Positions 8,611 through 58,327 of a stretch of 64,000 nt of DNA are shown here, piece by piece. Origin of the DNA: Candidatus Levyibacteriota bacterium (lineage in GTDB: Bacteria; Patescibacteriota; Microgenomatia; Levybacterales; UBA12049); the NCBI GenBank assembly GCA_027459725.1, contig DAIDHK010000001.1, positions 195,411-259,410 on the forward strand, in the 5' to 3' direction. A program made the position numbers and the translations under genes. Position 1 is the stretch's first letter, and each line of letters starts with the position of its first letter. The notes below the pieces were generated by a model. That model was not told the origin of the DNA and searched no databases. It saw only the letters and a program-made list of their open reading frames with translations.

Positions 8611-11343
8611 ATGTATATTTTCTTTTATCTCTTATTGACAAGACAGATCTTACTTAGTCATTATAATGATATGAACGAACAGAAGCATGAAAAAGTAAAG
8701 GCAATTTTACCATCCGTTGATTATAATTATTTTATTACTCCAAAACAACTGAAAGTTTTTCTTTTTATATTATTCGCTTTACTCACTCCTTGTATAATTT
8801 TCATGAGTAGTATTTTTGTGTTAACTTATATTCATAGGAATGACTCTATTAATCAGACACTTATCAACCCTGGTATTTTGCCCGATAATCCCCTTTATCC
8901 GGTAAAAATATTTATTGAAGACAATTTTGTCCGCCTATTACCGAAAAATTCAGATAAGCTAAACTTCAATATGCATCTATCCAACGAGCGTCTGGCAGAA
9001 GTTCATAGTTTGCTTATACAGGCAGAAAGTTCCGGTGTTACCTTTAATAACAAACTAAGCTATGTACCTAAGGCATATGCCCAAACCGGGTCTTCAACCA
9101 TGTCAAACAACCAATCAACTGGCCAGTTGCAACAAAAAGCTGATGAGTATTTAACTTTTACTCAACTGCAGCAATATTCTATTCAGAACAATCTCCTGCT
9201 AGCTCGAAAAAACAAGGATTTGACTATTACCTACTGTTTAGAAGATAAACTATCACAAATAAACACAGTTTATTCTAATCTTCAAGCTACTGTAACAAAT
9301 CTTGCGAATGCTAACACTACAAATAATATTAACCTCATAAATCATGATTATATTTTGCTGAATATTAATTTAGATAGTGCTAAAAGAATTGCCCAGATGG
9401 CTGACCAATGTATCGGAAACTATACTGATAATTCACTTGACATAAATAACTCACCCCAAGGCTCTGCTTCAGCGTATCAAAAGATACCTCTGACTCTTAA
9501 TAACTCTGCTAATTCATCTAATTCCACTGCAATTTATACATTTCCTAATCTAACCTACTCACTTTCCATCTCAAAAAACCTTGTTGTTAATATCCCCACT
9601 GCGCTTTCCGACTATTCGCTACTGCAGCAAGAGGCTCAAAGTGAAATAAACAGAATCAACGATACACAATTACTAGCAAGCAATATAACTATGGCCAACA
9701 CTCAACAAAAACTACTTTCAGATGATGTAACAGGAGAAATTTCGAGTATATTCAATGACAAGTCTCCTGTACCACAAGAGGCTTTGGATATTCTGCAACC
9801 TATAGAAGCGAGCATGCTGATTTCTCACGACACCTCTACCCAAGGCATTAATAAACTAGCTCAATATAGCATTCCTATCGCCAGTACTTTCACTGTCAAC
9901 GATATTCATAACCTGTCTAATATTGTACATAACACTCTGTTAGTTCCACAAACGAGCCAAACGGTTCAACAGACCGAAGACTTGATGCAGTTGTATATGA
10001 AAGATGTAACAAACGATACCGCTTTGATTGGAAATCTACCCAATTCAAATAATATAAATAAAACACTAAAAAAACAATTTTTATCGTCCCTGATACTCGT
10101 ACCTGACCAGTTAAAAATTAATGAAACATCTACTCCTGCTATCGCGGCGGTTATCAGTAATATTCTTCCTTTGAATGCTTCATCCTTACAAAACGTTGTC
10201 ACGAGCATAACCGGCTTATCGGTACCAGAAGCAGTAAACTTTTATATTTCTCAAATGAATATAGATAAAAATACCATTAATCAATTTATCGCAGAAAAAC
10301 AATCCTCAGTATATATTATTCCTATTATTTTAAGCTTTAACCAAACAGCAGATGATACTCGAAATATTCTTAAATCAACTAAGACATCTATACCTAACAA
10401 TCAAGGCTATTTAACAAATACAGCTTTGCTAACTTCATCGGTCAATCAAGCTTCTGCAACCGTACAATCTCCCTACTATATAGGCAATTCTACTACTAAC
10501 AACCCTACAACTGGCTCTAACTCAAATACATCCTCTGAATCTTCACCTGCAAATAACAATACAAATAATAACAGCATCAACTCATCAAATAATCAAACGC
10601 TAACCCCTATACCAACAATTATATTAACACAACCCGGTTCAACCTCTACAACTCCTATAACAAACCCTATGCCCACTCCCACACTTATTCCTATTCCTAC
10701 TCAAGCAGCTACAATTCAAATCATTCAGTCTGACAACCCATCAATAGTAAATTATATGCCCTCAACAGCTGACTGTAGTAATAGCAACCCTAATGGTATA
10801 TGTAATAATGGACAAACTTGTCAAAACCTAGGCACGTCGTTTGCTTGTGCATATGCTACATGTACAAATGGCACTTCCTGTCACAATCCTAATAGACATG
10901 GCGCCTATGACTGTGGGGCACAATGTAGTGCAAACGGATCCGAATGTTGTCTCATTCCAAAACAAACTCCCACATCTTCTGCTGCTAATGGACAAGTCTG
11001 TGCTCAGTCATATGGAGGTAACTGTTACAGCTGGGCGACAAATGCCTGCCCATCCGGACATCAAGCAGCTAATCCATCTGATCCTTACGTTGATTGCCGC
11101 ACTGAGAAAAACGCTCCTCACCCCGATTACTGTTGCATTACTACTTCTCAACCGGCATCCAGCGTACAGTCAAACTCTCAATCCAATCAATCATATAACT
11201 CTAATACACAAAACAATGGCAGCATTAATACTAATACTGCTAACAATAACAGCTATAATACCAGTAGTACTAATGCCACAACTTACAATTCAAATAATAA
11301 TAACTCAAGCAATGGATTGAATATAACAGCCAATGGAAATTAA
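8611..11343 (+). CDS. Large (910 aa) membrane-anchored/secreted surface protein; N/S/T/Q-rich with Cys-rich C-terminal module and N-terminal GILPDNPLY (DUF5667-like) motif
   Basis: N-terminal TM/signal anchor, GILPDNPLYPVK motif shared with ORF 61466..62032, long low-complexity Asn/Ser/Thr tracts, about 30 Cys clustered in residues 720-830. Confidence 0.6.
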   Translation: MYIFFYLLLTRQILLSHYNDMNEQKHEKVKAILPSVDYNYFITPKQLKVFLFILFALLTPCIIFMSSIFVLTYIHRNDSINQTLINPGILPDNPLYPVKIFIEDNFVRLLPKNSDKLNFNMHLSNERLAEVHSLLIQAESSGVTFNNKLSYVPKAYAQTGSSTMSNNQSTGQLQQKADEYLTFTQLQQYSIQNNLLLARKNKDLTITYCLEDKLSQINTVYSNLQATVTNLANANTTNNINLINHDYILLNINLDSAKRIAQMADQCIGNYTDNSLDINNSPQGSASAYQKIPLTLNNSANSSNSTAIYTFPNLTYSLSISKNLVVNIPTALSDYSLLQQEAQSEINRINDTQLLASNITMANTQQKLLSDDVTGEISSIFNDKSPVPQEALDILQPIEASMLISHDTSTQGINKLAQYSIPIASTFTVNDIHNLSNIVHNTLLVPQTSQTVQQTEDLMQLYMKDVTNDTALIGNLPNSNNINKTLKKQFLSSLILVPDQLKINETSTPAIAAVISNILPLNASSLQNVVTSITGLSVPEAVNFYISQMNIDKNTINQFIAEKQSSVYIIPIILSFNQTADDTRNILKSTKTSIPNNQGYLTNTALLTSSVNQASATVQSPYYIGNSTTNNPTTGSNSNTSSESSPANNNTNNNSINSSNNQTLTPIPTIILTQPGSTSTTPITNPMPTPTLIPIPTQAATIQIIQSDNPSIVNYMPSTADCSNSNPNGICNNGQTCQNLGTSFACAYATCTNGTSCHNPNRHGAYDCGAQCSANGSECCLIPKQTPTSSAANGQVCAQSYGGNCYSWATNACPSGHQAANPSDPYVDCRTEKNAPHPDYCCITTSQPASSVQSNSQSNQSYNSNTQNNGSINTNTANNNSYNTSSTNATTYNSNNNNSSNGLNITANGN

Positions 11344-11384
11344 GAGAGTGTTATCATGTTTTAAGTAGAATGATATAACTTTAT

Positions 11385-11798
11385 ATGCATATTCCATTAT
11401 TTAGCACCATAACTTTAATAGCAGAAATTATTATTTCTTGTATTGTCTTTTATACTTTTTATCGAAGTTATATGCACAATAAATTCCCTACCCCTCTTGT
11501 TGCTTTCGCACTTCTATATGAAATAACTTTTAATATAAGCTACATGGCTACAAGAGTATCAGCTAATACTGAAAAAATTGAAATTCCCTGGCATATTGTT
11601 CTAGCAGCGTCCCATGGCATTTTGTCTTTAATAATGTTTATTTCGTTAATAATTTTTATGCTTTTAGCCTGGAAAAATTACAGGAAAGGGATAAACTATT
11701 TTAAGCAGCATAAATATATAACTATTATCTTTCTAATTTTTTGGTCAATATCAATCATATCAGGTATCTTATTATACTTCGTGGAATACTTCACATAA
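11385..11798 (+). CDS. Hypothetical small integral membrane protein (4 predicted TM helices)
   Basis: 137-aa highly hydrophobic ORF directly downstream of the large surface protein. Confidence 0.45.
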   Translation: MHIPLFSTITLIAEIIISCIVFYTFYRSYMHNKFPTPLVAFALLYEITFNISYMATRVSANTEKIEIPWHIVLAASHGILSLIMFISLIIFMLLAWKNYRKGINYFKQHKYITIIFLIFWSISIISGILLYFVEYFT

Positions 11799-26176: not shown

Positions 26177-27919
26177 ATGCATAAACTGTTCGTTAAAAAT
26201 TACCAATTTTTTATAATTACAGTTCTATTAGTAATTGGTTTTATCTTAAGATTTTATAATCTTAATTGGGGAGCTCCTTTTTATTTTCATCCTGATGAAA
26301 GAAACATTGCATCATCTATTTCAGAACTGAATTTCCCAAATCAAATGAACCCTCATTTTTTTGCTTACGGTTCCTTACCTATCTATTTAGTATATTTTAT
26401 CGGACTGCTAATGAATCTTTTTATTAACTGTCATATATCCACTTTTAATTGTACCCAGATTAATTTTACTCAAGCAATTTTATTGCTGAGAACTATCGCA
26501 GCGGTCAGCAGTTTATTATTAATTCCTTTATCTTTTTACATTGGCAATTATCTTAAAAACAGGCCCGTTGGGTATATGGCGGCATTCTTAACAACTTTTA
26601 GTGTGGGATTAATACAGTTCGCCCATTTCGGCACTTATGAAATGTGGCTAACAATCTTTTCTACCTTAATGTTTGGTACTTGTCTTTGGTACTACAAAAC
26701 TAATAAGCTCCTACCCTTTATTTTAATGGCTCTAACAACAAGTATACTTTGTGCAAGTAAGGTTACATCTTTTGTATTACTACCCATTCCACTTCTGCTT
26801 ATTATCAAACTATCAATTGAAGAGTTTAAAATTTATAAGTTTATAAGACATAAAGTCTTTCATTCTTTTTTTGTTCTCCTAAAGTTGATACTTTTTTTAT
26901 TCATTGTTGCGGATATTTATATTCTGACTAATCCATATACATTTCTTGATAAACCCTCCTTTTTAAATAGTATGCATTATGAATCTGGAGTAGCTCTGGG
27001 TACCGAACCAGTCTTTTATACAGGAGAATTTTATAATACTACTCCTGTTATCTTTCAGTTTATTCACGTATTTCCTTTTCTACTAAATCCTTTAATAACG
27101 GTAATTTTCCTTTTTTCCTTCATTTATATTTGTTATCTGATAGTTAATCCTTATCTAAGTCATATATCTCTTTTAAATTTAAATTCTAAACCATTTAGAA
27201 ATAGAAGATCTCAATTCAATTATTTTTTAGTTATCATTTTTTTTCTGCTAATATTTCTGTCTCAAGCCTTCTTCTTTGTTAAATGGACTAGATATATGGT
27301 TCCAACATTGCCTTTTATATATCTGATTGTTTCAATATTCCTATTTGACTTTTATACATATGCTCAAAAAAAATGGTCTAATATACGGATAACTACAGTC
27401 TATGTGGGAGTTTTGGCGTGCACTGTTATTTTCGCTTTAAGTTATATAATCAGTGTATATGTAGAACCTGATACCCGTCTGCAGGCTTTACAAGCAGCAA
27501 AAGAAATTTTACCTTCAGACACCAATATCCTAAGTGAGGTGTACGATTTAGGTATAATTCCTTTTAATAATTATTATACTAATATCAAATTATATAATTT
27601 TTATGATTTAGATAATCCTTCTTCTCAAACTAATTCAACAACTTTAAAAAATGCTTTACAGGCAGCTCAAGCAATAATTTTGCCTAGTCAACGAATTATG
27701 AAAGTAAGAATAGATAATCCACAAAAATTTCCTAAAGGACACAATTTATATTCCAGATTGTTTTCTGGACAGCTAGGATTTAAACTTATTTATGAGACTC
27801 CTTGTGATATATTTTGTAAGATTACGTATTTGGGTAGTCCTGTTTTCTCCTATGAAGAAACAGCTAGTGTATTTGATCGTCCAACCGTATTTATTTTTAA
27901 GAAAATTAAACAAAAATGA
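26177..27919 (+). CDS. Polytopic GT-C-fold membrane glycosyltransferase-like protein (HPDER-motif paralog A)
   Basis: About 12 TM helices; periplasmic loop-1 motif FHPDER; soluble C-terminal domain ending DRPTVFIFKK; paralogous to 27916..29724. Confidence 0.5.
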   Translation: MHKLFVKNYQFFIITVLLVIGFILRFYNLNWGAPFYFHPDERNIASSISELNFPNQMNPHFFAYGSLPIYLVYFIGLLMNLFINCHISTFNCTQINFTQAILLLRTIAAVSSLLLIPLSFYIGNYLKNRPVGYMAAFLTTFSVGLIQFAHFGTYEMWLTIFSTLMFGTCLWYYKTNKLLPFILMALTTSILCASKVTSFVLLPIPLLLIIKLSIEEFKIYKFIRHKVFHSFFVLLKLILFLFIVADIYILTNPYTFLDKPSFLNSMHYESGVALGTEPVFYTGEFYNTTPVIFQFIHVFPFLLNPLITVIFLFSFIYICYLIVNPYLSHISLLNLNSKPFRNRRSQFNYFLVIIFFLLIFLSQAFFFVKWTRYMVPTLPFIYLIVSIFLFDFYTYAQKKWSNIRITTVYVGVLACTVIFALSYIISVYVEPDTRLQALQAAKEILPSDTNILSEVYDLGIIPFNNYYTNIKLYNFYDLDNPSSQTNSTTLKNALQAAQAIILPSQRIMKVRIDNPQKFPKGHNLYSRLFSGQLGFKLIYETPCDIFCKITYLGSPVFSYEETASVFDRPTVFIFKKIKQK

Positions 27920-52536: not shown

Positions 52537-52680
52537 TTACTTCACCTCCTTTCTTAAAAGTACACAGTCTGTGTTACAAAGCAATAATATGTAGTTATCC
52601 TGAGAAACAAACCAAAATCTTGTAGCAAAAATGTAAGAAGCGGGTGTTATTCTGAAAATTAAATAGTTTAGGAGAATTTG

Positions 52681-52753
52681 TGCGTCTGGGAGGACTCGGA
52701 CCTCCGACGTGATGTGTATAAGACATCTGTTCTAGCCGCTGAACTACAGACGC
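52681..52753 (-). tRNA. tRNA-Ile with anticodon UAU (reads AUA)
   Basis: Clean cloverleaf on minus strand: 7-bp acceptor stem (GCGUCUG/CAGACGC), 4-bp D stem, 5-bp anticodon stem with loop CUUAUAC (U33, anticodon UAU, A37), 5-nt variable loop, 5-bp T stem, discriminator A73, no encoded CCA; T-loop UCCGAGU has C at position 55. Confidence 0.7.
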
Positions 52754-52797: not shown

Positions 52798-55182
52798 TTA
52801 CAACTTAGCTCTTTGTGAAATCTCTGACTCTACAATTTTTACATCTCTACCAAATTTCAAACGGGACAATTCTTTTACTAATTCTGCAACTCTAGCATTT
52901 TTCATTTTGTCCTCTTGAGAAGTATCTTTGGTTAAATCTAAAGAAAAAGGCGGAACCGGTTCTCCATCAACACCTGTTCTTATATAGGCATTAAAGCGAT
53001 CAATATTAATTAAGTCAGCTTCTGTAAATGTCGGAGTAAATTCGTGTTGTAGATAGTTAGCATCAGTTACTCCAACACGAAAAGAAACAATCGTTCCCAC
53101 ATTTCCAAAAATAGCATTTTTAATTTCTTCATCCATCTGTCCAATAAACTGATTGGCAACAATCAAATTAAGTTTATATTTTCTCGCTTCTGATAAAATT
53201 TGCGCAAAATCAGGTGTGGCAAAGTTTTGAAACTCATCAACGTATAAATAAAAATCTTTACGCTGCTCTTTGGGTATATCCTGACGACTCATGGCGGCAA
53301 CTAGAATTTTAGGTACAATAATTAAGCCTAAAAAACTAGAATTTTCTTCACCGATCCTACCTTTTGAAAGATTAATTAATAAGATCTTTCTGTTATCCAT
53401 AACGTCTCTAAACTGAAATGCGCTATATGATTGACCAATAATGTTACGGATCATTTTGTTAGTAACAAAACGTCCGAATTTGGAAGTAATATAATCCAAT
53501 ACTTCAGACTTATGAAAGTCACTTGTCTGGGCAATCTGATCTGTCCAATAACGTCTAACAATTGGATCATCCACTTTAGGTAACAATTCCTGTACAAAAG
53601 CTGGATCTGTTAACACACGCATAACTTCAATAAACGTATTCCCAGGCTCAGACATAACCGTTAACATAGCATTACGTACGGCATGCTCAAAACGCGGGCC
53701 AATAATACCTGTTTTGTTAGGATCAAAAAGCTTATACATTAAACCGATAATCGACGTTACTACCATATGCTTCTGGTCCTCAGATTGTGCTTCCAGCATG
53801 TTCATTCCCATTGGCCTCTCAATATCTGAAGGATCAAATAAAATCACATCTTCTGCCCGCTGCGGTGGAATAAGCTGTAAAATATCCTCTACTAAATCTC
53901 CATGAGGATCTACCACCGCCAACCCTTCTCCTGCTCGAATATCCTGCATAATCATCTCTTTCAAAAATTCAGATTTTCCTGTACCTGTCTTACCTATAAT
54001 ATACATATGTCGCTGGCGGTCAAATTTACTCATATATACTGGTCTGCTAATACCCCTAAAGATGCTCTTACCGATGAATAAACCATTTGATGGCAAGTTA
54101 GACGGGGCTGGTGCTCTTTTTGAGTTAACCCAATGTATACCAGGTGTTGCAACCCCTTTATTGGGGAAATGAAAAATTGTTGCAAGCTCTTCGCTAGTTA
54201 AAACAGATGTATGATCCCATAGTGGCCAATAACGATAGACGAAATCCGTAATAAAAGCACCCTTCATACGAATTTTAAGTTTTTTAAACTCATTCGATCC
54301 GCCATACTGACTAAAACCATTAATTATATTAGAGAGATGCATATTTGCAGCCTCAGTAGAACTTGAAGAAACAACAACCCTAATAGTAGTATCAAAACCT
54401 GGTTTGGATATCTTATTTTCAATACCCTCCAGCTCCTTACTGTCGACTGAATATTTCGCAGTTTCCGGATTTGACTCACTTTTTTTGGTTTTAGCAATAT
54501 ACGCTTTGCCTTGCGACTTCCAATGTTTATCGGCAGGACTTATCAGAATTTGAACAGCTATACCTTCCCCTTCTCCCATCTTGGCTAGTGTGGATGTAAT
54601 AGAGGCCATGGGATCAACAGGAAAATCTTTAAATACTTTAATTGGATAATAAGAAGCAGATTTTAATTTTAAGGAAGCGTATGCAACTTTTCCTGTTTCC
54701 GAAAAAATATTATATTCCCCACCCAGAATAGAATCGGTTCTCTGATGTGCAGCCGAGTCTCCAACCTCGACAATCAGAGCATCCGGATAAGAACCATTAA
54801 TTTGCTTCTCTACGAAGTCACGAATTTTATTTGGAACATGAATATAATAGCGAATATCTCCGGGCATACCGACTATTTCAAACGAGAGATGTGGTTGGGG
54901 ATGCAAAAAATGGAATCTTCCACCCTTTTTTATAGCAGCCAAGCTGGAAAACAACTGTTCGGCAGCATCAATTTTGATCTCATTATCACGTGGTACAGCT
55001 ACCTGAAGTAAAGTTGAATTCAGAGCATCCTCTTCACGATGTCTATACTTATACCACAAAAAAAATATATACCCCACGAGAGCCAATAAAGCAAAAAAAA
55101 TTAAGAAACCTGCAGCAAATAACACCAGACCTATTAATAGTCCTGTCGGATCTCCAGCCAAAAATGAACTTACCACATCCAT
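52798..55182 (-). CDS. Membrane-anchored VirD4/TraG/TraD-like coupling-protein-family ATPase with a long N-terminal extra domain
   Basis: N-terminal TM; Walker A IIGKTGTGKSEF followed by VVDPHGDL (T4CP DPKGE-like); Walker B YLYVDEFQNF and C-terminal ...KLNLIVANQFIGQM...GNVGTIVSFRV resembling the TraG-D_C region. Confidence 0.5.
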   Translation of the reverse strand: MDVVSSFLAGDPTGLLIGLVLFAAGFLIFFALLALVGYIFFLWYKYRHREEDALNSTLLQVAVPRDNEIKIDAAEQLFSSLAAIKKGGRFHFLHPQPHLSFEIVGMPGDIRYYIHVPNKIRDFVEKQINGSYPDALIVEVGDSAAHQRTDSILGGEYNIFSETGKVAYASLKLKSASYYPIKVFKDFPVDPMASITSTLAKMGEGEGIAVQILISPADKHWKSQGKAYIAKTKKSESNPETAKYSVDSKELEGIENKISKPGFDTTIRVVVSSSSTEAANMHLSNIINGFSQYGGSNEFKKLKIRMKGAFITDFVYRYWPLWDHTSVLTSEELATIFHFPNKGVATPGIHWVNSKRAPAPSNLPSNGLFIGKSIFRGISRPVYMSKFDRQRHMYIIGKTGTGKSEFLKEMIMQDIRAGEGLAVVDPHGDLVEDILQLIPPQRAEDVILFDPSDIERPMGMNMLEAQSEDQKHMVVTSIIGLMYKLFDPNKTGIIGPRFEHAVRNAMLTVMSEPGNTFIEVMRVLTDPAFVQELLPKVDDPIVRRYWTDQIAQTSDFHKSEVLDYITSKFGRFVTNKMIRNIIGQSYSAFQFRDVMDNRKILLINLSKGRIGEENSSFLGLIIVPKILVAAMSRQDIPKEQRKDFYLYVDEFQNFATPDFAQILSEARKYKLNLIVANQFIGQMDEEIKNAIFGNVGTIVSFRVGVTDANYLQHEFTPTFTEADLINIDRFNAYIRTGVDGEPVPPFSLDLTKDTSQEDKMKNARVAELVKELSRLKFGRDVKIVESEISQRAKL

Positions 55183-55189
55183 AATTAAG

Positions 55190-55816
55190 TTATGCCGCTT
55201 TTTCTACTAACGCTAACTTCGACTCCTCCTTTTTACGTAGTTCCTTTATATGAAGTTTATGCAAGATAGATAAAACAAGTACAGCAAGCCAATGCTTAGA
55301 TTCATCCGGAGAAGTAGTTTTTATTATATCAGCAGCCTCATTGCCTGTAAATGGTTGTTGAGGAAACTTCATGCTTGCTGCAATATGAGAATTCATAGGT
55401 ACAGATTCTTTAGCAGGTTCCAATCCGGCTAATTCTTGAGAAGCAGACAATTTTAACTGTTCGTCATCTTTGGATTCTTCAACTCCAATCTCCTTTAATT
55501 CTGCACTTATTTCAGGCTGACTTTCGCTAGCTTCTGAAACATGCATAGCTTCATTAGACCGTATGGGCGTTTGTTCTTTGTGAAGCGAACTAACGGGATG
55601 ATAGGATTGAGAAGATTTAGTTTGAACTTCGCTATTATTCAACTGTTGAATGCGATCGTCCTGACTAATAGTTGCCATAGTTGGTGATGAGCTGGAATGG
55701 TCTTGCATTACATTCACCTGTGTACCAACGGTACCAGGCTGCACTGTTGATTGATCATCAGCTGTTAACTGCGCTAAGGGTTGAGAATTTGAATTCTGTT
55801 GTATACTATCATCCAT
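55190..55816 (-). CDS. Acidic, Ser/Gln/Glu-rich low-complexity protein with C-terminal amphipathic/hydrophobic helix
   Basis: 208 aa; predicted disordered; C-terminal HWLAVLVLSILHKLHI; 8 nt upstream of the ATPase gene. Confidence 0.5.
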   Translation of the reverse strand: MDDSIQQNSNSQPLAQLTADDQSTVQPGTVGTQVNVMQDHSSSSPTMATISQDDRIQQLNNSEVQTKSSQSYHPVSSLHKEQTPIRSNEAMHVSEASESQPEISAELKEIGVEESKDDEQLKLSASQELAGLEPAKESVPMNSHIAASMKFPQQPFTGNEAADIIKTTSPDESKHWLAVLVLSILHKLHIKELRKKEESKLALVEKAA

Positions 55817-55867
55817 ATATTTATCTTAACATGTATGTAAGTATACAACAAACAATACTTAAATTTA

Positions 55868-57052
55868 TTAACATGCGTATTCTGTAGAACCTTTACAGGA
55901 AGGACAATGTATTTTCCCACCCTTTATAATTGCATCTACGTCTTTTGCCTTACAAAGAGGACATTCATTACATTTTAATGTTCTTTCACCACTTAAGGAG
56001 GATGCCATTCCGCCTGGAACATAACCAAAAGCCATTTTTGCCTGCTCATCGCCAAAACCAACTCCTGCGCCACAACTTCCTCCAGCCGATGCCACATTAG
56101 TTAAAAAACCTGAGCCAATTTTATTTTTAGACAATGTTTTGCTTAATGACTGTTGGATATTTTGGGCATATTGCTTAAAGTAATTAGTAATAAATGCTTG
56201 AGACATTTGAGGATCGTTTAATAACAACATCTGAAAAATTCGTTCCAACATCCACTCATTATCTTGCAAAATCTTCTCGAATTCTTTAACTTTTGTCTCA
56301 TCCCCCATGTCGGCACCTGATTTGTTCTCCAATTGTTTTATTTTTGCTTCAATATCACGAGGAGATAAACCATAATTAACTTTTATTAGCGTAGATAAAA
56401 GTTCTAACGAAGAAGGAGTGTCTGTAAATATTTTCTTACCTACTAAATCTTCCAGTAATTCTTTTTGCACGTTATTCTCTAAATTATTTTTAACATCCCT
56501 ACCTTTTAAAACTTTAACGACTTTTGATTTACCACCCTCATTCAAAACTAATTCATCCACCTCATAAACATGCGTCATCGTATAGCCCCCATATATTTCT
56601 CCATTTAATCCTTCATTTTCCGGAGGAGGACTTGTCCAAATAAAAACATCCCCTTTGCGGGATTGGGATAAAGGTTCAGAGAATTTTTTAGTCACTTCAT
56701 GTTCCACAAGCCTTCTTTTTTTTTCATATTCTGGCACATCTTGTTCTAATGCTTTTTGAGATGCGTCATCAGCATAGCCAAATGACGGATGATATAAACG
56801 CGTATTTCCATTATCATTTACAATATGCCATAGATAATGAGTTGTCTGTATGCCGCCTATATATTCTTTCGCCCAATATTGTGCGTTTTGCATGAATCCA
56901 TCTCTGGCTAACTTTATTTGTCTTTCATCTTTGGAACCCATCGCTTCTAACGCGCGATCTCTTTCATGTGATAAGTTAAAAGACAAATGATTAGTGCTTT
57001 TAATTTCAGAGGTAGATGGTAGGGGTCGTTTTGCTTCAATTGTTTGTAGCAT
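55868..57052 (-). CDS. Hypothetical protein with C-terminal double CxxC zinc ribbon
   Basis: 394 aa; C-terminus CNECPLCKAKDVDAIIKGGKIHCPSCKGSTEYAC and Gly-rich GGSCGAGVGFGDE segment; start 4 nt after pduO stop. Confidence 0.5.
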   Translation of the reverse strand: MLQTIEAKRPLPSTSEIKSTNHLSFNLSHERDRALEAMGSKDERQIKLARDGFMQNAQYWAKEYIGGIQTTHYLWHIVNDNGNTRLYHPSFGYADDASQKALEQDVPEYEKKRRLVEHEVTKKFSEPLSQSRKGDVFIWTSPPPENEGLNGEIYGGYTMTHVYEVDELVLNEGGKSKVVKVLKGRDVKNNLENNVQKELLEDLVGKKIFTDTPSSLELLSTLIKVNYGLSPRDIEAKIKQLENKSGADMGDETKVKEFEKILQDNEWMLERIFQMLLLNDPQMSQAFITNYFKQYAQNIQQSLSKTLSKNKIGSGFLTNVASAGGSCGAGVGFGDEQAKMAFGYVPGGMASSLSGERTLKCNECPLCKAKDVDAIIKGGKIHCPSCKGSTEYAC

Positions 57053-57055
57053 ATA

Positions 57056-57613
57056 TTATAATCTCCAAATCTTTTCTCTTTGTTTTTCAATATGATTTAC
57101 AAATCTTGCAGCAGTAAATAAAAAATCTGATAGGCGATTGAAATAACTGATAATTAAATCCTCTATCTCCTCAGTCTGTTTAAGTTCTACAATTCTTCTT
57201 TCTGCTCTACGGCAGATTGTGCGAGCTAAGTGTAGTTGTGCACCTGCTAAACCACCTCCTGGTAAAATAAAATTTTTTAATTCAGGTAATTGCTCTGTTA
57301 TATCATCAATTACTTTTTCAAATTGTTTAATTCGCTTTTCTAACTGTGGTAAGGAAGGATTCTGCGGATTAGCCAAGGTCGACCCAATGGTAAATAAATC
57401 ATTTTGCACTTGCTCCAACTTACCAATTATTTCCATCATATTGTTATTGGATTTGGTTTTACTACCCACACTAATTGCTATACCTATTACAGAATTTAAC
57501 TCGTCTACTGTGCCATATGTCTCAACTCGTAAATCAAACTTATTTACTCTCTTGCCTCCAAACAATGATGTTTTGCCTTTATCACCAGTCTTAGTATAAA
57601 TTTTATTTTTCAT
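57056..57613 (-). CDS. pduO: ATP:cob(I)alamin adenosyltransferase, PduO type
   Basis: IYTKTGDKGKTSLFGGKRV...RVETYGTVDELNSVIG N-terminal signature of PduO/MMAB family; 185 aa. Confidence 0.85.
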   Translation of the reverse strand: MKNKIYTKTGDKGKTSLFGGKRVNKFDLRVETYGTVDELNSVIGIAISVGSKTKSNNNMMEIIGKLEQVQNDLFTIGSTLANPQNPSLPQLEKRIKQFEKVIDDITEQLPELKNFILPGGGLAGAQLHLARTICRRAERRIVELKQTEEIEDLIISYFNRLSDFLFTAARFVNHIEKQREKIWRL

Positions 57614-58178
57614 GACTATTTTCCTCTGGGTTAATACTTAGATATATGCGTTGTTTAAACCAGGGTTTAATTACTAATTCATAACTGCTAAAAAATAATC
57701 CTATGTATAGTAGATATCCCATAATTGTATTGCGGAAAAAAGGTAAGGCTAAAATATAACAATTAAATAGCCCACTTAGTGTATGCGGATAAAAACTGGT
57801 GGTTAACCAGACACCAAAATTAGTAATAATGAAAAATTGTAAAGACGATAATAAAGTTATACCGACAATATTAGCCTTTGTTTTATATCTTCTAATCCAT
57901 AGCCCTAATAAACCCGTAATCAAAAAACTCCCATAAACAAATGGCATTTGCCAATAAAAACCCAAAAAAATATCAGAAATAAATAAACCAATTAATGGAA
58001 GTGATAATGCATACTTTTTATTTAGATAGACTCCTGAGAACAACATTATTGCGGTAAGAGGAGACATGTTTGGAGGATGCGGTAGAAGCCTGGCTATTAC
58101 TACTAATATAATTAGTATAAATGAATTAACTATTTTATTTTTATCTATTAATTTCTTTGCTCGAAGTAATTTCTCCAT
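57603..58178 (-). CDS. Small polytopic membrane protein, candidate cobalamin ECF-type S component / B12 uptake protein
   Basis: About 190 aa with about 6 TM when started at internal ATG 58178 (MEKLLRAKK..., SD GGAGG 7 nt upstream); sandwiched between B12-dependent nrdJ and pduO and preceded by a cobalamin-riboswitch-like leader. Confidence 0.4.
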   Translation of the reverse strand: MEKLLRAKKLIDKNKIVNSFILIILVVIARLLPHPPNMSPLTAIMLFSGVYLNKKYALSLPLIGLFISDIFLGFYWQMPFVYGSFLITGLLGLWIRRYKTKANIVGITLLSSLQFFIITNFGVWLTTSFYPHTLSGLFNCYILALPFFRNTIMGYLLYIGLFFSSYELVIKPWFKQRIYLSINPEENSHEK

Positions 58179-58179
58179 A

Positions 58180-58320
58180 AAAAACCCTCCTAAGCGAGGG
58201 TTTTTGTCGATGCATAAACAAATTCCTGCTCGGGATAATATAAAACTATCTAGTTTTCTGTCTGTAACAGTAGCGGCACTGATGAGGATTTTCACCTCTA
58301 TTACCTAGATGTTTTTTAAT
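58180..58320 (-). promoter_or_regulatory. Candidate cobalamin riboswitch with SD-sequestering terminator hairpin
   Basis: Minus-strand leader contains GGTGAAAATCC (exact match to the most conserved cobalamin-riboswitch segment) followed by GCCGCTACTGTTA (B12-box GCCGCCACTGTAA-like) and ends in CCCTC-gcttag-GAGGG-TTTTTT, which pairs the SD and precedes a U-tract. Confidence 0.4.
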
Positions 58321-58327
58321 TTTAATG

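Follow-up and report, generated by a model that had tools for sequence, protein, structure and literature searches.

A probable orphan type IV coupling protein of Levyibacteriota with a predicted VirB4-like domain and a disordered partner, next to a cobalamin module

Results

Organization of the Locus

The window analyzed here, a 64,000-nucleotide stretch of the genome of a Candidatus Levyibacteriota bacterium (contig DAIDHK010000001.1), carries on its minus strand three adjacent genes. These encode a 394-amino-acid (aa) protein with an SCGxGxGF cysteine and a C-terminal zinc ribbon (p394; 55868–57052), a 208-aa protein that is acidic and disordered and whose C-terminal helix is basic and amphipathic (p208; 55190–55816) and a 794-aa membrane-anchored ATPase (52798–55182), in which a DUF8128 domain precedes a motor like that of the type IV coupling proteins (T4CPs) of the VirD4 family. 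The locus consists of two adjoining modules, p208 with the ATPase and a vitamin B12 module that includes p394, rather than of one three-gene system. All three open reading frames (ORFs) were present in the ORF list of the window, and homologue searches and family hidden Markov models (HMMs) identified them as genuine conserved families and not chance ORFs; the ATPase was delimited by Pfam matches and homologues, p208 by its HMM family and conserved motifs, and p394 by a full-length family HMM and its neighborhood. As read from the sequence, p394 and p208 are separated by 51 nt, p208 and the ATPase by 7 nt, and the ATPase stop codon lies 44 nt from a tRNA-Ile(UAU) gene on the same strand (52680–52753, anticodon TAT, detected with ARAGORN and Rfam). 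The original prediction, made from the letters alone, had described three co-directional genes with short spacers ending at a tRNA, and this layout was found.

The Motor Domain Resembles Type IV Coupling Proteins

The ATPase begins with a transmembrane (TM) helix at residues ∼12–46 (55045–55149, minus strand), an anchor that had been predicted from the sequence and was recovered both as helix 12–46 of a structural model and as a Kyte-Doolittle maximum of 2.93 at residue 15. A cytoplasmic location of the C-terminal part would fit this arrangement, because a basic stretch, KYRHRE, comes after the helix. The DUF8128 domain (residues ∼55–345; 54148–55020) is followed by the motor (residues ∼380–750; 52933–54045), both on the minus strand, and motifs and profile matches place the motor in the FtsK/HerA superfamily, with the T4CP type. 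Its Walker A motif, GKTGTGKS (residues 397–404; 53971–53994), and Walker B motif, LYVDE (residues 646–650; 53233–53247), both read from the minus strand, are ∼245 residues apart, and the motifs GKTGTGKS, LYVDEFQNF, and ANQ were invariant among 22 homologues.

Four Pfam families scored above their gathering thresholds: TrwB_AAD_bind (PF10412; 36.9 bits, cut-off 20.5, residues 385–456), T4SS-DNA_transf (PF02534; 28.3 bits, cut-off 20.1, residues 555–686), TraG-D_C (PF12696; 26.2 bits, cut-off 22, residues 645–709) and DUF87 (PF01935). T4CP models also ranked first in NCBIfam, with 50 bits each for SXT_TraD and for the VirD4-like CD1115 model, the latter over residues 386–704. VirB4 models of the same library reached just 12–17 bits (TIGR00929, 16.7 against a cut-off of 643; CD1110, 11.5), and searches of Pfam and NCBIfam gave no AAA_10 or CagE_TrbE_VirB match that would indicate a VirB4-type motor. 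When a profile of 22 sequences was compared with solved proteins, the nearest were DotL (E = 2e-5) and TrwB (E = 8e-5), with the Walker B and Q motifs aligned. We also checked for a match to the FtsK/HerA family instead of the T4CPs: the FtsK_SpoIIIE model (PF01580) reached 18.8 bits, under its cut-off of 24, and covered the P-loop only, with no match to a gamma or winged-helix domain, and HerA models were weak. T4CP models thus score far above VirB4, FtsK and HerA models, in agreement with the original description of the ATPase as VirD4/TraG/TraD-like, and we consider it highly probable that the protein is a type IV coupling protein of the VirD4 family, although one of its more remote members.

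The N-Terminal Domain Recurs in Plasmid and Archaeal Coupling Proteins

The region of ∼300 aa between the anchor and the motor had been regarded as unassigned and novel. This did not hold, since precomputed annotation assigns it in all homologues to the Pfam family DUF8128 (PF26449). An AlphaFold model of residues 1–382, made from a 16-sequence alignment (pLDDT 64, pTM 0.66), shows the long TM helix (12–46) followed by two alpha/beta modules. When the model was compared with the PDB using Foldseek, the top 14 matches were all TrwK/VirB4 of plasmid R388; the best had an E-value of 4.8e-8, a probability of 1.0 and a TMq of 0.42 over ∼380 columns, and the first match after this set was five orders of magnitude weaker. 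We read DUF8128, on the basis of the model, as a fold like the N-terminal domain of VirB4. Such a predicted domain in an orphan T4CP of Patescibacteria looks new.

The same architecture occurs well outside Patescibacteria. Full-length relatives of the ATPase (24–31% identity, residues ∼57–790) were detected by tblastn on 348 plasmids, with hosts among Bacillus, Streptomyces, Staphylococcus, Clostridium, haloarchaea and Sulfolobus. Further relatives are found in Bacillus phage G and SPO1-like phages, with matches to PHROG 5156, and none were found in the viral contigs of IMG/VR. On the Bacillus subtilis plasmid NZ_CP032854 (MH-1), the homologue WP_121549396 (residues 75–750 aligned, 24% identity, E = 3e-47) directly precedes a Replic_Relax relaxase, TcpE, an AAA_10 VirB4 and proteins annotated for conjugal transfer, the place of the T4CP in a conjugation module of Gram-positive type. 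This homologue (8905–11565 of the extracted locus, L083) has no TM helix, and its C-terminus is an acidic tail of ∼170 aa rich in S, E and D. In the Haloterrigena plasmid pHTS138 (WP_204749458, WP_204749459), the DUF8128 part is a separate ORF of 399 aa (E = 1e-17 against residues 58–357), located immediately upstream of a TraM-recognition T4CP in a cluster that also contains a pilin and a large conjugal-transfer protein. The presence of DUF8128 T4CPs in these plasmid and haloarchaeal conjugation clusters marks DUF8128 as an ancient accessory domain that belongs to one subfamily of T4CPs in the conjugation systems of monoderm bacteria and archaea.

p208 Is the Constant Partner of the ATPase

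To compare loci, species genomes of GTDB were scanned, giving 590 confirmed ATPase hits, and the closest 80 loci, of 16 kb each and all from Microgenomatia, were retained. A p208 family HMM of 130 positions, built by iterated searches on the fetched loci, gave a match right before the ATPase gene in 70 of the 80. Two of the remaining ten loci are cut by contig ends, and the other eight have an ORF of 61–180 aa in the same position, of 112–180 aa in seven of them; in most of these ORFs the N-terminal part is of low complexity and the C-terminus is basic. A small gene therefore lies directly upstream of the ATPase at every assessable locus (78/78), with a median gap between p208 and the ATPase of 3 nt, and the two often overlap. 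p208 and the ATPase form a constant pair, of which p208 is the obligatory partner gene.

The original description of p208 as acidic and disordered or of low complexity, with a C-terminal amphipathic helix, was borne out by its composition. Members of the family start with MDD; their N-terminal part is disordered and rich in Q, P and S, they share short conserved motifs (KE..P; PEV.E.GVE; G-I/L-.-H-AKE..P; PM-T..EA) and a C-terminal amphipathic helix (DS..WLA...), and they have no TM segment. The charge is unevenly distributed, with a median of −9 for the body and +4 for the last 30 residues, which are positive in 59 of 67 members. The protein evolves fast, showing ∼35% identity where the ATPase shows ∼71%, and it has no match in the family libraries Pfam, NCBIfam, PHROG and PADLOC. 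Its composition resembles that of the acidic tail of the T4CP on NZ_CP032854, but p208 is a separate protein. The Bacillus homologue has an acidic C-terminal tail and the Patescibacteria ATPase does not; p208 may supply in trans what the plasmid protein has in cis.

The ATPase Is Conserved Like a Housekeeping Protein

Protein searches with the ATPase returned more than 6000 relatives, the best 120 of which are 71–82% identical, and homologues are annotated as Levybacteria/Levyibacteriota and as "Patescibacteria group," which places the window on a chromosome of the Microgenomatia, within the candidate phyla radiation. Conservation was then compared with that of neighboring genes, as median identity to the window proteins in the 45 loci that hold all compared genes. 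The full-length ATPase (70.8%) was better conserved than the adjacent class II ribonucleotide reductase (RNR; 66.7%), NrdR (62.8%) and PduO (55.8%), and within it the motor half reached 79.9% and the N-terminal half 60.8%. Because its identity exceeds that of RNR, NrdR and PduO in the same loci, the ATPase is under purifying selection at the housekeeping level and vertically inherited, unlike the genes of mobile elements. It is single-copy and has a steady genomic context in the 80 sampled loci, with unremarkable GC content.

No relaxase, VirB4 or pilin gene was found in the 64-kb window or in the set of gene families common to the 80 loci, as had been claimed for the immediate flanks, and the conclusion that this is not a standard conjugation locus stands, with no conjugative element present. 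The suggestion that the system is lineage-specific fared less well. According to a recent survey, 5,713 homologues of VirD4-type T4CPs occur in 2,918 genomes of Patescibacteria, with only 148 of them near virB4, which in Microgenomatia is located near dnaA, and the authors state that exaptation of these homologues "cannot be ruled out" (Quinonero-Coronel et al., 2025, PMC12102498).

Of 76 related loci, 43 have a tRNA-Ile(UAU) gene within 400 nt downstream of the ATPase; 33 of these genes share the strand of the ATPase and 10 are oriented the other way. A tRNA-Ile with the anticodon UAU is an uncommon bacterial way of reading AUA. Directly after the ATPase, 47 of the 80 loci encode an Xer-like tyrosine recombinase of 286 aa on the other strand, and 43 have a DivIC-like gene there; in L001 (12863–14136) the two are annotated as Phage_integrase and DivIC, and this adjacency extends to four divergent loci (L072–L075, 65% identity). 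One possibility raised by such neighbors is a stand-alone DNA translocase like FtsK, with the ATPase acting alongside the Xer-type recombinase in chromosome segregation, dimer resolution or division. Conservation at the housekeeping level and the membrane anchor would suit this role, and T4CPs are themselves relatives of FtsK. However, the FtsK_SpoIIIE match is below threshold and confined to the P-loop, without a detected gamma or winged-helix domain, and in the window itself neither an Xer nor a DivIC gene lies beside the ATPase. The adjacency seen elsewhere may be synteny that related genomes have inherited, Saccharibacteria TM7x has an annotated ftsK gene, and full-length homologues of the ATPase are located in conjugation modules. 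We consider an FtsK-like role unlikely and retain the assignment to the VirD4 family.

Upstream, the pair follows an NrdR–RNR operon in most loci, the divergent ones included. In a Shapirobacteria locus (L077, 3207–9256) the order is NrdR, NrdD, NrdG, small ORF and ATPase, and the reductase is of class III; the linkage to RNR therefore survives a change of RNR class. On this view of the neighborhood, the pair could serve as a motor that brings in DNA or RNA from the host, supplies nucleotide salvage and is expressed together with the reductase. T4CPs do translocate nucleic acids, and a 2026 preprint describes a Patescibacterium that feeds on host RNA via tubes resembling a type IV secretion system (T4SS), but the preprint does not implicate a T4CP. 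Support for import is purely contextual, the synteny within Microgenomatia may be historical, and no NrdR boxes were found near the p208–ATPase pair. We know of no precedent for import by a VirD4-type T4CP, and regard this alternative as distinctly improbable.

p394 Belongs to a Riboswitch-Controlled B12 Module

The gene for p394 begins 3 nt after the stop codon of pduO, which encodes a PduO-type ATP:cob(I)alamin adenosyltransferase (57056–57613, minus strand; Pfam Cob_adeno_trans, E = 2.3e-60). Overlapping pduO by 11 nt is the gene for a DUF6580 membrane protein (57603–58295, minus strand; Pfam DUF6580, E = 4.6e-49) that resembles the S-components of energy-coupling factor transporters, with a weak ECF-ribofla_trS match. 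An adenosylcobalamin (AdoCbl-II) riboswitch (58243–58322, minus strand; Rfam RF01689) was detected at 53.4 bits (gathering threshold, 36.5), and at 93 bits with our own model R1, between the stop codon of the class II RNR gene and the DUF6580 gene. The listed start of the DUF6580 ORF (GTG, 58295) overlaps the riboswitch, and the real start is for this reason probably a downstream Met codon near 58178.

The B12 module thus comprises NrdR, class II RNR, the riboswitch, DUF6580, PduO and p394, and it appears to serve B12 uptake and adenosylation for the B12-dependent reductase, with p394 as its last gene. A single riboswitch heads five co-directional, tightly packed genes (DUF6580, pduO, p394, p208, and the ATPase), and no terminator-like sites were predicted in the spacers between them, which makes co-transcription of p208 and the ATPase with the B12 module plausible, as had been proposed. 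Consensus promoter and terminator scans of the region performed at chance level and were uninformative. The best σ70-like match of the promoter scan (55323–55351, minus strand; TTTACA, 17 nt, TG-TATAAT; 11 of 12 positions) falls inside the 3′ part of p208, ∼140 nt ahead of the ATPase start, and is likewise at the level expected by chance.

Consistent with the original description, p394 has no recognizable domain except a C-terminal double CxxC ribbon: no family was found for it in Pfam, NCBIfam, PHROG or PADLOC. Among 40 diverse homologues, the four cysteines of the zinc ribbon (C364, C367, C383 and C386) are invariant, as are E63 and C327, the latter within SCGxGxGF. A terminal cysteine is nearly invariant in 12 closer homologues and closes the 40-member consensus as well; this recalls the neighboring class II RNR, whose Cys-rich zinc tail terminates in ...CGYSEC. 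A profile search of the PDB returned a generic zinc ribbon only, which resembles that of eL43, and the fold of p394 had no match in the PDB or in BFVD. A relaxase, or any other known fold, was accordingly rejected as an identity for p394, given the lack of a library family or a fold match in these two databases. The family is narrow, with 93 clusters among 1.84 billion representatives and one single architecture.

A full-length p394 profile of 326 positions matched in 52 of the 80 loci, always downstream of pduO, and in these the p208–ATPase pair comes after p394. The other 28 loci keep the p208–ATPase pair without p394, and in several loci other genes are inserted between p394 and p208. p394 also occurs where the pair does not. 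Three divergent homologues (P0130, P0134 and P0135) lie in the order NrdR, RNR, (DUF4430, DUF6580), PduO, p394 and a ComFC-like gene, with no p208 or ATPase within 6 kb of p394; the contig of a fourth ends ∼0.6 kb past p394, with no p208 or ATPase match in that interval. In these four loci (L085–L088), p394 thus stands without p208 or the ATPase. Besides the copy in the window, RF01689 riboswitches turned up in four of the nine related loci that were scanned, and a covariance model built from five copies gave 82 hits in 82 sources. The riboswitch is directly upstream of p394 in 34 of the 52 loci, as well as in L085, L086 and L088, directly upstream of pduO in 20 cases and of a DUF4430-like gene in 11.

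These patterns bear on the proposal of the original prediction that p394, p208 and the ATPase are one lineage-specific three-component system for translocation or uptake. The co-directional genes with spacers of 51 and 7 nt, and the 52 loci in which all three are together, agree with it. When conservation of the trio among relatives was examined, however, the p208–ATPase pair proved constant and p394 was not always with it, and p394 follows PduO elsewhere without either partner and commonly has a cobalamin riboswitch of its own. A single three-gene operon system is thus contradicted by the neighborhood evidence and was rejected; we think it very unlikely. Since p394 always follows pduO, has the riboswitch upstream and persists without the ATPase, it is best placed, as far as gene context can tell, as a cobalamin-riboswitch-controlled gene of the B12/RNR module and not as a partner of the T4CP. 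It looks like a new B12-riboswitch-controlled family of unknown fold, and our guess is that it is an accessory protein for cobalamin handling or redox chemistry.

Some related loci had features of separate interest. Three divergent ones (L069–L071; e.g., L070, 4340–6471) encode an unrelated protein of 632–695 aa in the place of p394, ahead of the small partner gene, and weak riboswitch matches precede it in L070 and L071. The class II RNR of L086 (1509–5075, 1188 aa) carries an intein with a LAGLIDADG domain, and a group I intron (RF00028) is present in L020 (15069–15269).

Composition and Gene Content of the Window

The window is AT-rich, with a GC content of about 35% and no compositional break at the ATPase locus, and it contains ordinary housekeeping genes, such as those for EF-G, EF-Tu, ClpB, UvrD, superoxide dismutase, uracil-DNA glycosylase and a histidine kinase. 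No partner genes of HerA or MADS systems (NurA, mad1–7) were found near the ATPase in the window or in the 80 loci. Derivation of the ATPase from an integrated conjugative or mobilizable element, or membership in a defense island as a HerA/MADS mad8-type ATPase, could draw on the homologues on plasmids and in Bacillus phage G, the PHROG 5156 match, a PADLOC mad8 match (E = 2.4e-17) with weak HerA and DndH matches, and the adjoining tRNA gene, but both readings are scarcely credible and were rejected on conservation and context, given the single copy in a steady setting in the 80 loci sampled from 590 species with hits, conservation beyond that of RNR, typical GC content, the absence from the window of any integrase, relaxase, other mad, dnd or defense gene, the restriction of the mad8 match to the P-loop core, and the lack of relatives in IMG/VR.

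Two other ORFs on the plus strand of the window are noted in passing. A 580-aa ORF (26177–27919) without a Pfam match adjoins two PMT_2 glycosyltransferases and DUF2298, and a 910-aa ORF (8611–11343) has an N-terminal DUF5667 domain as its sole annotation.

Discussion

The observations on the motor, its N-terminal domain, the constant partner and the genomic setting are, in our judgment, best explained overall by a chromosomal "orphan" type IV coupling protein with p208 as its companion, and we hold this reading to be probable. How such a pair might work is more tentative, and feeding of a T4SS, outlined below, is a possibility to which we give somewhat less than even chances. The ATPase would form a membrane-anchored hexameric motor. 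DUF8128 would mimic the N-domain of VirB4, which in the published R388 structure contacts VirB3 and the tails of VirB8, and would thereby dock the motor on VirB3/VirB8-type inner-membrane parts of a distal, relaxase-less T4SS. The motor would then hand this T4SS a non-conjugative substrate, a protein or possibly nucleic acid. p208 could be either an adaptor or the cargo itself, by way of its disordered acidic body and its positive C-terminal helix, which together resemble the signals by which T4SSs recruit substrates.

Several points weigh against an orphan coupling protein that serves a T4SS. All NCBIfam equivalog cut-offs for T4CPs, those of TraD, SXT_TraD and CD1115 included, were missed widely, the best score being ∼50 bits against 250–650. 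The model of the N-domain is of moderate confidence (pLDDT 64), the stretch of VirB4 aligned by Foldseek was not reported, and no sequence-level similarity was detected between DUF8128 and a Bacillus VirB4 (hhalign probability 0.06). No T4SS component is present in the 64-kb window or in the 16-kb related loci, so that the link to a distal T4SS is drawn from homology and the literature only. The roles of p208 and p394 are likewise proposals from sequence. Every locus sampled for the pair is from Microgenomatia, and no p208 homologue was detectable outside this neighborhood in a sequence search that gave five hits and was limited by its word prefilter. Finally, the t4cp gene of S. epibionticum is non-essential although its T4SS is essential, according to the survey cited above (PMC12102498), which argues against an obligatory T4CP–T4SS partnership. 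The essential T4SS cluster of that organism has no recognizable coupling protein or relaxase (Wang et al., 2023, PMC10633639).

A bolder version of the same idea would make p208 and the T4CP the missing cytoplasmic motor of the essential, relaxase-less T4SS of Patescibacteria, running in reverse or non-conjugatively to carry nucleic acid of the host, or p208 itself as a disordered effector, through the membrane of the epibiont, and co-expressed with the RNR and B12 genes in a way that would tie uptake to dNTP supply, with the N-domain in the position of VirB4 and the whole protein as an intermediate between VirB4 and VirD4. We consider this speculative, with the odds heavily against it.

Orphan T4CPs of Patescibacteria have already been published and are not new as a kind. 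What appears to be new is the predicted VirB4-like N-domain, the obligatory disordered partner, the exceptional conservation, the RNR/B12 neighborhood and the p394 family. These features matter because Patescibacteria rely on an essential T4SS, and because the orphan T4CP homologues of this group have so far been counted and not analyzed. An orphan T4CP of Microgenomatia under housekeeping-level selection offers one lead, and a putative VirB4-like docking domain common to T4CPs of monoderm and archaeal plasmids offers another. The obligatory disordered partner is a testable candidate for how the T4SS is fed, and the architecture of the ATPase bears on the origin of VirD4 from VirB4. In p394, organisms that must scavenge cobalamin for their sole ribonucleotide reductase have a new riboswitch-controlled family.

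Among known systems, the orphan T4CPs of the published survey are almost certainly the same gene set, VirD4-type and mostly far from virB4. The available part of that survey counts them, without the DUF8128/VirB4-like N-domain, the small partner, the degree of conservation or the RNR/B12 neighborhood (PMC12102498). Plasmid T4CPs of the DUF8128/"DUF87" type are homologous to the window ATPase from end to end, N-domain included, and belong to the same architecture family. They differ in that the plasmid copies adjoin a relaxase, TcpE and VirB4 and have no p208-like partner, the haloarchaeal N-domain is a separate protein, and identity to the window ATPase is 24–31%. The Legionella T4CP DotL works with small cytoplasmic adaptors, one of which binds zinc, and acidic or disordered substrate signals are recognized there. 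The resemblance to DotL–DotM–DotN–IcmSW is one of analogy only, since p208 and p394 have no detectable homology to its components and p394 lies in the B12 module. The predicted fold of DUF8128 matches only VirB4 chains in the PDB, and the ATPase has the overall order of VirB4/TrwK of R388, an N-domain followed by a RecA-like motor, but its motor scores with VirD4 models, and a bona fide VirB4 is encoded separately on the related plasmids. The VirD4, TrwB, TraD and DotL coupling proteins have in common with it an N-terminal membrane anchor, an FtsK/HerA P-loop motor and T4CP Pfam domains above gathering scores. Classical T4CPs usually carry two TM helices, whereas the window ATPase has one and adds the DUF8128 domain of ∼300 aa between anchor and motor. 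It is, moreover, chromosomal and vertically inherited, stands apart from relaxase and mating-pair genes, and is far better conserved than the T4CPs of mobile elements.

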